Assembly (NCBI RefSeq): GCF_006345805.1
Contig: NC_042999.1
Location: 27,094,001 to 27,158,000, forward strand
Source of the DNA: Octopus sinensis
Taxonomy: Eukaryota
Length of the DNA stretch: 64,000 bases
Direction of reading: 5' to 3'
Shown here: piece by piece, positions 1,401-59,007 of the stretch
How the letters are laid out: every line of letters starts with the position of its first letter
Position numbering within the stretch: position 1 is the first letter of the stretch
Notes under the pieces: generated by a model
Told to the model about the DNA's origin: nothing
Databases searched by the model: none
The model's input: only the letters and a program-made list of their open reading frames with translations
Translations under genes and position numbers: made by a program

Positions 1401-1483
<83 letters not shown>

Positions 1484-1540
1484 AAAAAATGAAGTTCGAA
1501 AATGCTGCTGTATTATACAATTTTTAATTTTTATATATAT

Positions 1541-1587
1541 ACATTATAACATGTTTCAGTTCTTGAAATGAACCTTATCAAAAAAAG
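1541..1587 (-). ncRNA. Hammerhead ribozyme-like motif (U3:A8 variant), mirror copy of 8053-8099
   Basis: UUGAUAA, stem II GGUUC/GAACU, GAAA, CAUG, UU on the minus strand; stem I is weak. Confidence 0.5.
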
Positions 1588-2469
1588 TTATATATAAAAA
1601 AAGACAGCTCATGCCGTCAAACACAAGAAATTCATTTATAATACACAACGGAGTCAGACATCTTAGAGTTCATGTATAGTTGATATATAGTTCATGTATA
1701 GTTGATATATAGTTTGAAGTATATGTTCAAAGTGTTCGATGCAGTGGCCCACGGTGGCGATACGTATTCAATACAAAAAACAGAAAACAGATCAAAGTGG
1801 TGGAAAGTGGTCAATACAGAAGATTGATGTTTCCGAAAGAGCGAGGAATTCATTTTTACCTTAAGCAATTGTGATGACCCATAGTGGATGTTCGCTGGGT
1901 GGATCTAGTGGGTTTTGTGAAGTGCTCGGTTTTATAATGCCTGTTAGGTGGTCAATCCAGCGTAGCGTGACGTCATCAACGTTTTGACCAATCGTTTCGT
2001 TAGGTGGCTTTATTCAAGCAGAACGGGACGTCATCATCATTTTGACCAATCGCTGCATTATAACTGCCTCTTGTTTGTTTCCTGTTTTGACCAGTCGCTT
2101 CGTTAGTCAAGCAGAACGGGACGTCATCCAGATTCTGCCCAATCACGACTTATAGCTACATTAGATCTGCCCCCTGTCTGGACTTGTTAGGTGACTAGTC
2201 AAGCAGAAAAGGACGTCATCAATATTCTGACTATTGACTGTCCCCTGTTTGTATCCTGTCCATTCTAGCAGAGCTAGACGTCATCAACTTGTTGACCAAT
2301 CAGAATCGGGTGTGACCCTTAGCTGTATCGTATGTATCAGGGTCAGATTTGCACGAAAGAATTTTTTTCCGTTTTTACTAAGGCATATTTCCGTCAGAGC
2401 GAGTGTCTGTTTAAAGTAGCGGCCGTGGTGGAATTTTGCTTCTCCTTTTCGGAGGACTTATCTTTTGTT

Positions 2470-3921
2470 TTAGTATTCCTGGCCCAGGGTGTTTAAACTT
2501 GGTCTAAATTTTTTTATGAAATATAGTTCTTTATTTTGGCGTTGTGTGAAGGTTGCGTTGTCACTGAATTTATAAAGCGGGTTAGTTGTAAATTTCGGAT
2601 TTACATTTCCAGCACATCTATCTATGTGTCCGCTGACCGGTATTTTGCGGTAATCAGGGTTTCTAATTTGTGATTTATGCACCGCCATCCTGTTACGTAA
2701 GCTATTTTTTGTATGGCCTATATACTGCCTATTGCAGCCTGCGCATGTTATGACGTAAATTAAGTTTTCTGATGCGCAGGTGAAGTTTATTCTAATGGTG
2801 AACTGGTGGCCTTGTTCCAGTATAAATTCTGATCCTTCTTTCAAGATGACACAGATTCCGCAGTTGGGCCTTCCACATTTTCTAACTGCTGGTTTTGTGG
2901 TTGATGTTGAGTGCAGTGTAGCTTGGGTTAAAATCTTTTTCAAGGATTTTGGTTGCCGTTTACTTTTAATGATGGTGTGTGTTTCGAGGATCCGGTTCAT
3001 CTTTGGGTCTCCCTTTAGTAGGGCTGTGCTTTGTAGTATGGTGTTGAAGGCCTCATTGTTGAGTGGGTTGTGTGTAGAGATGTAGGGAAGGGTTTTTAAT
3101 TGTTCTTTCTTTTTTGGTTTTGTTTGTCTCAGGTCTTCTATACTTAATTTAAGCACCCGTTGGATTGCACTGTCTATTAGGGGCTGTGGATAGTTTCTAT
3201 TTGTGAGTGTGGTTCTAAGTTCCTGGAGACGTGTGTGTCGGGTGTTTGTGTCTGATATTATGGTGCAAATCCTTCTAGCTAAACAAAAAGGGACATTCAT
3301 TCTAGTGTGTCGTGGGTGGCATGAATCAAAGGGTAGGTACTGTTTAGAGTCTGTCGGTTTATAGTAGATATCTGTCTCTATTTTGTTGCCGGTTTTCTTA
3401 ATGAGGATGTCTAAAAATGGTAATTCTTTTTCGTTGTAGTCCATCGTGAATTGTATATTGTCATTTATTCCATTTAATAGTATTTTAAATTCCTCAAGTT
3501 TCTCTATACCTTTGTCCCAGATGATGAAACAGTCATCGAGGTATCTTTTCCAGTTGTTATGGATATAGGTGGCAAAGGTGTTTCCATATTTCTCGAGTGT
3601 CATCCGGTATAGTATTTTCTCGAGGTATCCCATCACTAGGTTGGCAAAAGATGGTGCAGTACGCGTGCCCATCGCTGTTCCCGATCTTTGCCTGTAGAAA
3701 TCATTGTCAAAAATAAAATAATTGTTCTCTAAAATGAATCTAAGTCCTTCTATTATAAGGTCTTTGTTTATGCGAGTTGGTAGTTCAAAGGGGTAGTTAT
3801 TCAGCCAGAAGGTGATCGCTTCTATTCCTAGGTTGTGAGGGATGTTAGAATAAAGATTAACTACGTCGAATGATACTAGAAGGGTTTTCTCATTGACTGT
3901 TTTAGGGAGGTGGTTGAGCAT
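2470..3921 (-). CDS. PLE reverse transcriptase (C-terminal part) plus GIY-YIG endonuclease; uninterrupted but N-terminally truncated
   Basis: RT motifs SFDVVNLYSNI, QRSGTAMGT, RYLDD and LPFLD; Cys-rich linker CGRPNCGIC; endonuclease LIYVITCAGCNRQYIGHT...R...H...E...PSLN. The frame stays open to the junction at 3959. Confidence 0.93.
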   Translation of the reverse strand: MLNHLPKTVNEKTLLVSFDVVNLYSNIPHNLGIEAITFWLNNYPFELPTRINKDLIIEGLRFILENNYFIFDNDFYRQRSGTAMGTRTAPSFANLVMGYLEKILYRMTLEKYGNTFATYIHNNWKRYLDDCFIIWDKGIEKLEEFKILLNGINDNIQFTMDYNEKELPFLDILIKKTGNKIETDIYYKPTDSKQYLPFDSCHPRHTRMNVPFCLARRICTIISDTNTRHTRLQELRTTLTNRNYPQPLIDSAIQRVLKLSIEDLRQTKPKKKEQLKTLPYISTHNPLNNEAFNTILQSTALLKGDPKMNRILETHTIIKSKRQPKSLKKILTQATLHSTSTTKPAVRKCGRPNCGICVILKEGSEFILEQGHQFTIRINFTCASENLIYVITCAGCNRQYIGHTKNSLRNRMAVHKSQIRNPDYRKIPVSGHIDRCAGNVNPKFTTNPLYKFSDNATFTQRQNKELYFIKKFRPSLNTLGQEY

Positions 3922-3959
3922 ATCTATATCGTCTCTTACGTAGCTTTTGATGTGTTTTA

Positions 3960-4924
3960 CAAATCAAGCCCATCTCGGAAGAACCAGAAGAACAAAGAAA
4001 ACTTAGAGAAAAAATGTCATTAGAAAAAATGAAGATGGAAATAGAACTACTTAAGCTGAGAGCTAAAACGAATGAAGAAAAAGTAAAAGCCATAGTCGAG
4101 GAAATCAACGAAGAAGTCATCAAACTAATAGACGACATCAATACTGAAACATTACCAGCACTATGGAATGAAGAATGTGAAAAAGAGGAACTTAAGTCCC
4201 TCCAACGATGGGAAAAGAGCGTCATCTGGTTTCTAGATTATGAAACCAACTTCAAAAATGAACACATATCCAACAACCCCTTCATAAAATTAAGTAAATC
4301 AAAACCAAATACCAACAGAACGGAACAACCACCAAGAAATCCTACCACACTCTACACCAGAAAAGTACACCTAAAACACACCCCACCCTACCTACACCAA
4401 CCCCAAAACACCTACAGAGGCCCACCACACCAGTTCGAAAATAGACATACCAACAGAGCAGAACAACCACCAAGAAATCCAAACACACTCTACACCAGAA
4501 AATGCATTTAAAACGCACCCCACACTACCTACACCAACCCCAAAACACTTATAGGGTCCCACCACACCACTCCACGAACCTAAAAGCCACAACATACAAT
4601 ACTATAAAATACAACCCACATAACCAAATCAAAACGCTACTACCAAACATCCACCCCAGGAACCAACCATACAACTATAACAAACAACAAATGCACTACG
4701 GAGGAAACAACTACCAACACAATATACCTGAGGAACTAAGACGGAACACTAGGTTCAACAACAGACTCCAGAACAGAGCACCACAAACTCACTCTGACAA
4801 TTATAACAACATGAGACAGATAAATAATAGCTTTGGACATAACTACACCAACCATTTTTTAGACCTTACACACAGGAACAGGGACACACGATGGCAAAGG
4901 ACAAACAAAAGAAACCTCAGATAA
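3960..4924 (+). pseudogene. Upstream ORF of the PLE: E/K-rich predicted coiled coil followed by a Pro/Asn/His-rich region with a 46-aa tandem repeat; 5'-truncated, one frameshift near 4503
   Basis: ORFs 4014..4511 (open back to 3960) and 4502..4924. Comparing the two 138-bp repeat units (4311, 4449) shows a 1-nt deletion causing the shift. Confidence 0.7.
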
Positions 4925-7171
4925 TTAAGATAATCAATCTCTCAAACAAAGAACTTACACCTAACGAAATAAGCATACTCTCCAAAGCACTTAAATTTAC
5001 ACCCACCCCACAACGTTCTAATTACTATGAAATGAAGATGATATTTCGGAATTTTGCAGAAAACTAAGACTCACCGAGGCATTTCAAGACAAACAAATAG
5101 AGGAGGACTCAATAGCTAGAAACAAGAGCAATTACACCCCCACCAAGGGTAAGAATAAAGCCTTAGACCGCTATTGTGACTACATAACTAATTTCCCGTT
5201 TCAATTCATCAAGAAACAAAAACACAGCCCTAACTTCAACAAAAGAGAATGGAACGACCTCATCAAACTAAGAGAAGACAAAACAATAACAATTAAGGCA
5301 ACGCGATAGTAATAAGGAATATAAACGATTATAAAAATTTAGTGCTATCCCTATTAAGAGATGAAACGTATTATGAAAGGGCCCAACTGTATAACCAGCA
5401 AAAAATAATGCATAACCTTAGGACATTAATCAACACATACCAAGAAAGACTCACGAACAAGGAGTATGAATACATCACTAACTTCAAATGCAAATCGAGT
5501 TTGTTCTATGGTATCCCTAAGGTAAACAAAAGCCAAACCATTAGAGAAACGTGCAAAACATCCACCGACACACTCATCAAAATCCCTCCACCAAATGATC
5601 TTAAACTAAGACCGATAATAGCAGGGCCAGCATGTGAAACTCACCGCCTCAGCAATTTCTTAGACAAACTTCTTAAACCTTTCCTAAAACACATCAAAAG
5701 CTACGTAAGAGACGATATAGATATGCTCAACCACCTCCCTAAAACAGTCAATGAGAAAACCCTTCTAGTATCATTCGACGTAGTTAATCTTTATTCTAAC
5801 ATCCCTCACAACCTAGGATAGAAGCGATCACCTTCTGGCTGAATAACTACCCCTTTGAACTACCAACTCGCATAAACAAAGACCTTATAATAGAAGGACT
5901 TAGATTCATTTTAGAGAACAATTATTTTATTTTTGACAATGATTTCTACAGGCAAAGATCGGGAACAGCGATGGGCACGCGTACTGCACCATCTTTTGCC
6001 AACCTAGTGATGGGATACCTCGAGAAAATACTATACCGGATGACACTCGAGAAATATGGAAACACCTTTGCCACCTATATCCATAACAACTGGAAAAGAT
6101 ACCTCGATGACTGTTTCATCATCTGGGACAAAGGTATAGAGAAACTTGAGGAATTTAAAATACTATTAAATGGAATAAATGACAATATACAATTCACGAT
6201 GGACCACAACGAAAAAGAATTACTATTTTTAGACATCCTCATTAAGAAAACCGGCAACAAAATAGAGACAGATATCTACTATAAACCGACAGACTCTAAA
6301 CAGTACCTACCCTTTGATTCATGCCACCCACGACACACTAGAATGAATGTCCCTTTTTGTTTAGCTAGAAGGATTTGCACCATAATATCAGACACAAACA
6401 CCCGACACACACGTCTCCAGGAACTTAGAACCACACTCACAAATAGAAACTATCCACAGCCCCTAATAGACAGTGCAATCCAACGGGTACTTAAATTAAG
6501 TATAGAAGACCTGAGACAAACAAAACCAAAAAAGAAAGAACAATTAAAAACCCTTCCCTACATCTCTACACACAACCCACTCAACAATGAGGCCTTCAAC
6601 ACCATACTACAAAGCACAGCCCTACTAAAGGGAGACCCAAAGATGAACCGGATCCTCGAAACACACACCATCATTAAAAGTAAACGGCAACCAAAATCCT
6701 TGAAAAAGATTTTAACCCAAGCTACACTGCACTCAACATCAACCACAAAACCAGCAGTTAGAAAATGTGGAAGGCCCAACTGCGGAATCTGTGTCATCTT
6801 GAAAGAAGGATCAGAATTTATACTGGAACATGGCCACCAGTTCACCATTAGAACAAACTTCACCTGCGCATCAGAAAACTTAATTTACGTCATAACATGC
6901 GCAGGCTGCAATAGGCAGTATATAGGCCATACAAAAAATAGCTTACGTAACAGGATGGCGGTGCATAAATCACAAATTAGAAACCCTGATTACCGCAAAA
7001 TACCGGTCAGCGGACACATAGATAGATGTGCTGGAAATGTAAATCCGAATTTACAACTAACCCGCTTTATAAATTCAGTGACAACGCAACCTTCACACAA
7101 CGCCAAAATAAAGAACTATATTTCATAAAAAAATTTAGACCAAGTTTAAACACCCTGGGCCAGGAATACTA
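4891..7171 (+). pseudogene. PLE RT-GIY-YIG ORF, disrupted by frameshifts (about 5035, 5297, 5818, 7048)
   Basis: ATG 4891 reads MAKDKQKKPQIIKIINLS. ORF pieces 5342..5821 and 5971..7128. The expected (A)DKG motif is missing near 5297. Confidence 0.88.
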
Positions 7172-7340
7172 AAACAAAAGATAAGTCCTCCGAAAAGGAG
7201 AAGCAAAATTCCACCACGGCCGCTACTTTAAACAGACACTCGCTCTGACGGAAATATGCCTTAGTAAAAAAGGAAAAAAATTCTTTCGTGCAAATCTGAC
7301 CCTGATACATACGATACAGCTAAGGGTCACACCCGATTCT

Positions 7341-7710
7341 GATTCGTCAACAAGTTGATGACGTCTAGCTCGCTAGAATGGACAGGATACAACAGGGGAC
7401 AGTCATTAGTCAGAATATTGATGACGTCCTTTTCTGCTTGACTAGTCACCTAACAAGTCCAGACAGGGGGCAGATCTAATGTAGCTATAAGTCGTGATTG
7501 GGCAGAATCTGGATGACGTCCCGTTCTGCTTGACTAACGAAGCGACTGGTCAAAACAGGAAACAAACAAGAGGCAGTTATAATGCAGCGATTGGTCAAAA
7601 TGATGATGACGTCCCGTTCTGCTTGAATAAAGCCACCTAACGAAACGATTGGTCAAAACGTTGATGACGTCACGCTACGCTGGATTGACCACCTAACAGG
7701 CATTATAAAA
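7341..7710 (+). promoter_or_regulatory. Putative pseudo-LTR Pol II promoter: five ATTGG(-like)-N~9-GATGACGTC modules plus TATAAAA at 7704-7710 (mirror at about 1930-2302, minus strand)
   Basis: Modules start at about 7341, 7404, 7496, 7589 and 7647. The last contains a perfect CRE, TGACGTCA. Confidence 0.65.
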
Positions 7711-8052
7711 CCGAGCACTTCACAAAACCCACTAGATCCACCCAGCGAACATCCACTATGGGTCATCACAATTGCTTAAGGTAAAAATGAATTCCTCGCT
7801 CTTTCGAAAACATCTATCTTCTGTATTGACCACTTTCCACCACTTTGATCTGTTTTCTGTTTTTTGTATTGAATACGTATCGCCACCGTGGGCCATTGCA
7901 TCGAACACTTTGAACATATACTTCAAACTATATATCAACTATACATGAACTATATATCAACTATACATGAACTCTAAGATGTCTGACTCCGTTGTGTATT
8001 ATAAATGAATTTCTTGTGTTTGACGGCATGAGCTGTCTTTTTTTATATATAA

Positions 8053-8099
8053 TTTTTTTTGATAAGGTTCATTTCAAGAACTGAAACATGTTATAATGT
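8053..8099 (+). ncRNA. Minimal type I hammerhead ribozyme-like motif in the pseudo-LTR (U3:A8 variant)
   Basis: TTGATAA 8059-8065; stem II GGTTC/GAACT; GAAA 8083-8086; palindromic stem III ACATGT; triplet GUU; stem I poor. Confidence 0.5.
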
Positions 8100-8229
8100 A
8101 TATATATAAAAATTAAAAATTGTATAATACAGCAGCATTTTCGAACTTCATTTTTTACAATATATACCTACTCGTATACGAGCTAATCCTATTATAAATA
8201 TATATATAATATATATATACGTATATATA

Positions 8230-47192: not shown

Positions 47193-47601
47193 GGCGCAGG
47201 AGTGGCTGTGTGGTAAGTAGCTTGTTAACCAACCACATGGTTCTGGGTTCAGTCCCACTGCATGGCACCTTGGGCAAGTGTCTTCTACTATAGCCTCGGG
47301 CCGACCAATGCTTTGTGAGTGGATTTGGTAGGCGGAAACTGAAAGAAGCCCGTCGTATATATGTATATATATATATATGCGTGTGTGTGTTTGTGTGTCT
47401 GTGTTTGTCCCCCTAGCATTCCTTGACAACCGATGCTGGTGTGTTTATGTCCCTGTTACTTAGCGGTTCGGCAAAAGAGACCGATAGAATAAGTACTGGG
47501 CTTACAAAAGAATAAATCTCGGGGTCGAGTTGCTCGATTAAAGTCGGTGCTCCAGCATGGCCGCAGTCAAATGACTGAAACGAGTAAAAGAGTAAAAGAG
47601 T
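47193..47601 (+). mobile_element. SINE family A, full length
   Basis: Homologous to 957-1358. Confidence 0.9.
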
Positions 47602-50261: not shown

Positions 50262-50661
50262 ATTCTTTTCTGCTCTAGGTACAAGTCCCGAAATTTTAGA
50301 GGAGAAGGTCAGTCGAATAGATCGATCCAGTACGCAGCTGGTACTTAATTTATTAACCCCGAAAGGATGAAAGGCAAAGTCGACTTTGGCGGAATTTGAA
50401 CTCAGAACGTAAAGACAGACGAAATAACTATTTCTTTACTACCCGCAAGAGGCTAAACACAGAGAGGACAAACAAGGAAAGACAAACGGATTAAGTCGAT
50501 TACATCGACCCCAGTGCGTAGCTGGTACTTAAATTATCGCCCCCGAAAGGATGAAAGGCAAAGTCGACCTTGGCGGAATTTGAACTCAGAACGTAGCGGC
50601 AGACGAAATACCGCTAAGCTGTTTGCCCGGTGCGCTAACGTTTCTGCCACCTCGGCGTCTT
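50262..50661 (-). mobile_element. SINE family B dimer (central domain twice, two different 3' tails)
   Basis: CCCCGAAAGGATGAAAGGCAAAGTCGAC at about 50357 and 50541. Confidence 0.85.
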
Positions 50662-58627: not shown

Positions 58628-59007
58628 GGAGTGGCTGTGTGGTAAGTAGCTTGCTTAACAACCACATGGTTCCGGGTTCAGTCCCACTGCGTGGCATCTT
58701 GGGTAAGTGTCTTCTACTATAGCCTCGGGCCTACCAAAGCCTTGTGAGTGGATTTGGTAGACGGAAACTGAAAGAAGTCCGTCGTATATATGTATATATA
58801 TATGTGTGTGTGTGTGTTTGTGTGTCTGTGTTTGTCCCCCCATCATCGCTTGACAACCGATGCTGGTGTGTTTACGTCACCGTCACTTAGCGCTTCGGCA
58901 AAAGAGACCGATAGAATAAGTCCCGGGGTCGATTTGCTCGACTGAAAACGGTGCTCCAGCATGGCCGCAGTCATATGACTGAAACAAGTAAAAGAGAGAA
59001 AGAGAGA
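58628..59007 (+). mobile_element. SINE family A
   Basis: Homologous to 957-1358. Confidence 0.9.

Follow-up and report, generated by a model that had tools for sequence, protein, structure and literature searches.

A conserved heptamer and probable −1 frameshift signal at the overlap of ORF1 and the reverse transcriptase frame in Neptune-type Penelope-like elements

The element copy in the window and its class

The window, a stretch of 64,000 nucleotides from Octopus sinensis, carries on its forward strand a copy of a Penelope-like element (PLE), here called family A, at 3957–8205. The copy is 5'-truncated inside ORF1 and its 3' pseudo-LTR (pLTR) is present; other family-A copies align from 3957 and extend about 450 nt further 5'. 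The ORF1 remnant occupies 3957–4924 of the same strand, with a 1-nt gap near 4503 and the stop TAA at 4922–4924. Its N-half is helical or coiled-coil and its C-half is rich in N, H, R and P. A 124-nt duplication (89%) within ORF1, at 4309–4432 and 4447–4569, is common to family-A copies. ORF2 is found in the −1 frame at 4843–7172 (+) and encodes the reverse transcriptase (RT), a Cx4CxxC linker and a GIY-YIG endonuclease (EN). It is broken near 5037, 5299, 5819 and 7048, and with these indels and the one near 4503, all relative to the intact copy L034, the window copy is dead, so that its RT frame ends at a stop at 5065. The pLTR holds a mini-exon of ATG plus seven codons followed by the splice donor AG|GTAAAA (7758–7786, +). 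A motif at 8045–8125 (+), picked by eye from the consensus, is presumably hammerhead-like; an Rfam search for a hammerhead in the pLTR gave no match. On the reverse strand, an inverted, 5'-truncated second copy (ORF2 3' half and pLTR) lies at 1480–3959. SINE-like dispersed repeats of other families are observed in the window at 963–1308, 47199–47534, 58628–58961, 50327–50610 and further positions. The genome (2.72 Gb) contains at least 40 family-A copies at 98% or more, 40 having been scored of 761 candidates.

In an intact copy, Pfam reports RVT_1 at 28.9 bits, slightly below the cut-off of 29.6, and GIY-YIG at 27.7 bits, above its cut-off; the RT motifs DKG and YGxPK are present. Both pLTRs and inverted truncated copies are found, as expected of EN+ Penelope-like elements. 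The linker shows Cx4CxxC and then 24 residues to the next Cys, in agreement with the Neptune clade, which has a Cx2-5CxxC linker before the EN and CCHH in the EN. This linker spacing, compared by eye with the supplement rows of PMC8557442, is long, unlike that of Nematis. The EN is C-terminal, which sets the element apart from Naiad/Chlamys with their N-terminal EN and CxC motif. Judged by these sequence features, the element is a Neptune-type EN+ PLE. The RT tree was built by a quick method from rows without named Neptune references, and D and L111 are absent from it, their in-frame part being too short. At least ten distinct Neptune-type families are present in this genome (families C–J: L198–L285), and several of them have been recently active, as their ORF2 is open over about 775–784 codons.

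Two reading frames and a phased heptamer

Within the overlap, the ORF1 frame, which terminates at the TAA, reads CAT TTT TTA at 4853–4861, and the heptamer T_TTT_TTA at 4855–4861 (+; ORF1 codons His-Phe-Leu) is a predicted −1 frameshift site. The AG at 4861–4862 (+) is a putative splice acceptor. No stop interrupts the −1 frame from 4843 past an ATG in good context (4891–4894, +), which overlaps the ORF1 codon TGG, and past IINLS. The ORF1 stop lies 20 codons beyond the heptamer Leu in the window family. A sequence-only reading of this locus had described the phased heptamer and the RT frame as the −1 frame of ORF1, and both descriptions are correct to the base. In intact copies elsewhere, ORF1 has 466 aa (479 codons stop to stop) and ORF2 781 codons stop to stop, and the two overlap by 79 nt in the −1 frame; both ORFs are intact in two of 20 long stretches (L034 and L037). 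T6-AG is kept in 28 of the 30 nearest copies. Of 36 distinct family-A junctions, 30 have T6, three T5, one T7 and two a substitution. Since T6 is kept across copies and L034 and L037 are intact in the same frame relation, the heptamer is not a private indel, which had been named beforehand as part of what would refute the proposal.

Families were collected by protein searches of the element's own genome and by scans of metagenome and MAG contigs (97 loci), of which contig loci with the N-terminal motif and at least 150 nt upstream were read, giving 23 families in total. Left out were L168, which is a decayed relative of L103; L153 and L123, for want of a visible linker motif; Poseidon-like and EN-lacking loci; and loci with less than 150 nt upstream. 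L131, whose contig ends before the EN, is counted by its tree position. A loose pattern search returned 749 hits against 2002 in the control and gained one locus, L089, whose family was independently found by protein search and is represented by L282.

A heptamer of the X_XXY_YYZ form, T_TTT_TT(A/G/T), is found in phase within the ORF overlap in 20 of the 23 families, down to about 30% RT identity; the families are related, and these counts therefore overstate independence. The last base is A in 16, G in three and T in one, and the heptamer lies 0–26 codons past the start of the ORF2 open stretch. The site is missing from three families: in I both copies are truncated immediately upstream, L178 is open as far as its contig reaches, and L115 has a long fused N-terminus. 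Phased T6 occurs at two of 6671 ORF1 body codons, which gives an expectation of 0.15 of 20 overlaps. The codon before the Phe encodes His, Asp, Tyr, Asn, Arg or Pro, yet it ends in T in all 20 families, and the Phe codon is invariably TTT while overall TTT use is 21–87%. An invariant NNT-TTT amid such varied residues and codon use points to selection on the RNA heptamer and not on the peptide.

Family B, with ORF2 67% and ORF1 about 44% identical to those of A, has the same layout, and CAT TTT TTA is present in nine of nine copies. It has ATA in place of ATG 4891 (ATA/TAG), its ORF1 stop falls 10 codons after the Leu, and its first Met comes 60 codons past the site, beyond the INLS and KGLKF motifs. 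Its pLTR is unrelated to that of A and carries neither mini-exon nor donor. In family C the run is T7 in 25 of 30 copies with the −1 relation retained. No AUG is found between the heptamer and INLS in 15 of the 20 families; the carriers are A, D and G, at 11 codons on, and L130 and L179, directly after the site. The distance from heptamer to INLS varies from 54 to 198 nt. ORF2 homologues are 612–803 aa long among the 120 matches listed, with lengths up to 1367 allowed.

The ORF1 proteins of A, B, C, D, E, G, L101, L103 and L109 are homologous. ORF1 is all-helical in the predicted structure (pLDDT 74) and has no match in the protein database, the Atlas, Pfam (above cut-off) or PDB folds. L130, L131 and L179 have a different ORF1 of 643–844 codons with an esterase-like GDSN motif and no Pfam match, which is joined to RT by the same heptamer; PMC5408684 notes esterases for Neptune-like PLEs, which the GDSN motif fits. 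Some PLE contigs and proteins are filed under bacterial MAGs and symbionts (L181–L197; P0031, P0043 and P0061), most likely as host contamination. No viral contig with such an element was found in the contig search.

Frameshifting and other routes to the reverse transcriptase

The pattern of conservation makes it very likely that the site is a conserved programmed −1 frameshift signal, probably of the kind already predicted for PLEs. Ribosomes would slip one base back at the heptamer to give a minor ORF1-RT-endonuclease fusion, and most would end at the ORF1 stop; slipping would then set the ratio of ORF1 to enzyme, as in gag-pol. Programmed −1 frameshifting is the best reading because most families have no AUG before the first conserved motif and four of 20 have no same-phase acceptor. 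Against it stand the lack of a pseudoknot described below and the three families without the site. A same-phase AG comes first in 16 of the 20 families, which also fits an acceptor, and five families carry the AUGs described above.

ORF2 could instead be translated from a spliced RNA in which the pLTR mini-exon is joined to T6-AG and ORF1 is removed as an intron. The donor AG|GT at 7780/7781 lies 23 nt after ATG 7758 in phase 2, and the earlier arithmetic of an in-frame join to T6-AG is right. The sequence-only reading took this donor from an upstream tandem copy; at this locus, however, the upstream copy is inverted and truncated, so the proposed splice is impossible here, and other family-A copies do have a 5' pLTR. 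Among young family-A pLTRs the mini-exon AUG is kept in 22 of 24 and the donor in 24 of 24; T6-AG is one of three pyrimidine-run-AG sites in the coding region, AG follows T6 directly in 14 of 20 families (with G after TTA in 14 of the 16 TTA sites), and PLE 5' introns from the pLTR are known (PMC8557442). The donor is used as well: a contig of run X3 exits the element at the donor and runs on into an exon of the host genome, whose textbook acceptor is found some 1.1 kb downstream of the pLTR copy L286. On the other side, same-phase AG within 12 nt adds only two families, and the four with none first keep the phased T6. All 20 families have only T in the run, with no C, and the run keeps to the ORF1 frame; splicing needs neither. 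The pLTRs of older subfamilies (L047, L060 and L061) keep the donor without an AUG mini-exon and that of family B has neither exon nor donor. X2 and X5 have contigs, of 1529 nt and 2486 nt, that span the site unspliced. The predicted joint of donor and T6-AG is absent from the contigs of eight runs, which does not speak for its absence as contigs lose rare forms. These runs are presumed to be RNA (14 holders were guessed to be RNA), and eight of 24 listed runs were examined, all as contigs. As the source of ORF2 in general, splicing is thus very improbable; as a minor route in family A it is possible. Of the earlier proposal of frameshifting and/or splicing, the first part has gained from the distant conservation, the AUG loss in an active sister family and the heptamers without AG, and the second is not supported, as the join seen from the donor leads into host DNA.

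The pLTR copy L286 drives a chimeric transcript through the join of donor and host acceptor. Further loose ends at this donor are seen in X5, X9 and X10, and two other donor loose ends have no exact genomic match. A near-consensus donor, CAG|GTAATT, lies over the ORF1 stop (4917–4926) in most family-A copies, its G being lost in the window copy; no joint from it is found among the listed joints of the run contigs.

An independent start of ORF2 at AUG 4891, through reinitiation after ORF1 or leaky scanning, with the T run merely coding for Phe-Leu, is very improbable. Families A, D and G do share an AUG at this position, with A at −3 and G at +4, the ORF1 stop of D follows directly after, and a Met stands 10–12 residues before INLS in five of the six closest protein homologues. 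Against this, the codon is ATA in family B, of which many copies have an intact ORF2, CTA in E and CTG in H, 15 of 20 families are without the AUG altogether, and protein conservation leaves the invariant NNT-TTT unexplained. Slippage of RNA polymerase or RT that adds one T and fuses the ORFs, or a layout that is an assembly artefact, is extremely improbable: homopolymer indels are common in copies and one of 36 junctions is T7 with a fused frame (L060), yet 20 families, taken from independent assemblies, all have the run in a fixed codon phase, and the T7 of family C still leaves the −1 relation.

Candidate stimulators and known systems

A canonical programmed −1 signal has a downstream stem-loop or pseudoknot, and family A has neither. 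The 40–130 nt downstream of its heptamer are no more stably folded than shuffled sequence (z −0.4 to +2.2), in agreement with the earlier remark that no strong stem is obvious. A two-stem search, at a level reached by 5% of shuffles, found a pseudoknot after the site in none of 20 families and in six of seven EN-lacking relatives used as positive control; it was chosen because MFE z-scores are too blunt for even the control pseudoknots. A hairpin above shuffles is found in four of the 20, none from this genome. With pseudoknots at 0/20 and hairpins at only 4/20, frameshift efficiency could be low.

The number of ORF1 codons from the last heptamer codon to the stop is 10 in seven families and 11, 11, 12, 12, 14, 16, 17, 19, 20, 20, 23, 23 and 30 in the others. 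It is never below 10 in the 20 families; from codon shuffles, 9.1 of 20 would be expected to reach 10 or more codons and 0.7 to have exactly 10. With ten lineages counted once, none is below 10 (P ~0.0006), and six of the ten have a 10 against 1.6 expected (P ~0.001, to be discounted about tenfold as the value 10 was noticed in the data). The ten codons before the stop have no common sequence between families. A, D, G and H have TGG as eleventh codon, which a single base change would turn into a stop. Tails of 14–30 codons are found in nine of the 20 families, the window's among them. Tails of 20 and 30 were considered as ribosome multiples and rejected, as stops arise anyway at the Ile-rich INLS codons.

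Ten codons correspond to one ribosome length, and these spacings suggest, tentatively, that a ribosome queued behind a terminating one stimulates the slip. In many relatives, a ribosome terminating 10–12 codons downstream would block the trailing ribosome on the heptamer, and the terminating ribosome at the ORF1 stop would take the place of the pseudoknot as roadblock. Neptune-type retrotransposons may then be natural users of collision-stimulated frameshifting, a proposal that we regard as somewhat less likely to be true than false. The constraint on spacing could reflect the ORF1 tail or an RNA element instead. In the window family, with its 20 codons and AUG, U6A may be slippery enough by itself, or slow decoding of UUA may act as the stimulus; that U6A can shift in this second way is described in PMC6771820. 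Collided yeast ribosomes are reported 10 or 11 codons apart, the 10-codon gap being called a minimum, and disomes build up at stop codons in human cells (both bioRxiv 10.1101/2023.02.01.526718). In E. coli reporters (PMC6815119), a stop-paused ribosome raised −1 shifting of the trailing one. Where the stop lies matters for frameshifting in SARS-CoV-2 as well, though through a different route (PMC8168617).

A literature search found no paper that describes or tests the site, and earlier PLE papers (Arkhipova 2006, 2017; Gladyshev 2007) may mark Neptune frameshifts; it also found no natural case of a collision-stimulated frameshift. What is new is that the pseudoknot is missing and that, in many lineages, the stop is found at a distance of one ribosome length. 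For an abundant group of retrotransposons this corrects the gene model: the RT start had been wrongly called at a Met, and the two ORFs are joined by probable recoding at a named site. If the queue reading is true, enzyme output would scale with ribosome load, and the elements would provide a eukaryotic, evolutionarily conserved case of a mechanism for which the literature searched gave only synthetic E. coli reporters. A functional 10-codon rule would offer a natural system in which to test whether terminating ribosomes stimulate −1 shifting in eukaryotic cells; it would also allow other genes to be searched for overlooked sites by the rule of a heptamer, a stop 10–12 codons on and no structure.

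The seven EN-lacking relatives (L143, L148, L159, L173, L175, L176 and L177), which we take to be EN-minus PLEs (Athena, Coprina), the clade name being guessed, resemble the Neptune-type group in that RT lies in the −1 frame of an overlapping ORF1 that carries an X_XXY_YYZ heptamer. Theirs is A_AAA_AAC in the same phase, followed after a spacer of 5–6 nt by an H-type pseudoknot with covariation in its second stem, with an overlap of about 200 codons and the stop 191–210 codons on, whereas the Neptune-type group has U6(A/G/U), no pseudoknot and the stop 10–30 codons on. An EN-lacking outlier, L149, has A_AAA_AAC without structure, an ORF1 stop also 10 codons on, and telomere-like repeats after it.

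With the Neptune clade, as shown in supplement rows of PMC8557442, our elements share RT, a Cx2-5CxxC linker, a C-terminal GIY-YIG and a spacing like that of Neptune1_Nv, and further pLTRs, an inverted truncated copy and TA-repeat flanks. The abstract of that paper presents canonical EN+ PLEs as single-ORF, and its Fig. 1 legend gives an optional ORF1 set off by a frameshift with a pseudoknot; here two ORFs are found without a pseudoknot. The U6A systems of PMC6771820 have the same heptamer and the same FFR/FLR products, but a downstream stem-loop that family A lacks. The E. coli collision reporters of PMC6815119 place the heptamer one ribosome length upstream, with a peak at 9 codons, an effect of about 2-fold and no RNA structure; that system is synthetic and bacterial, whereas the Neptune-type case would be natural and eukaryotic, with an A-site spacing of 11 codons (10 between).
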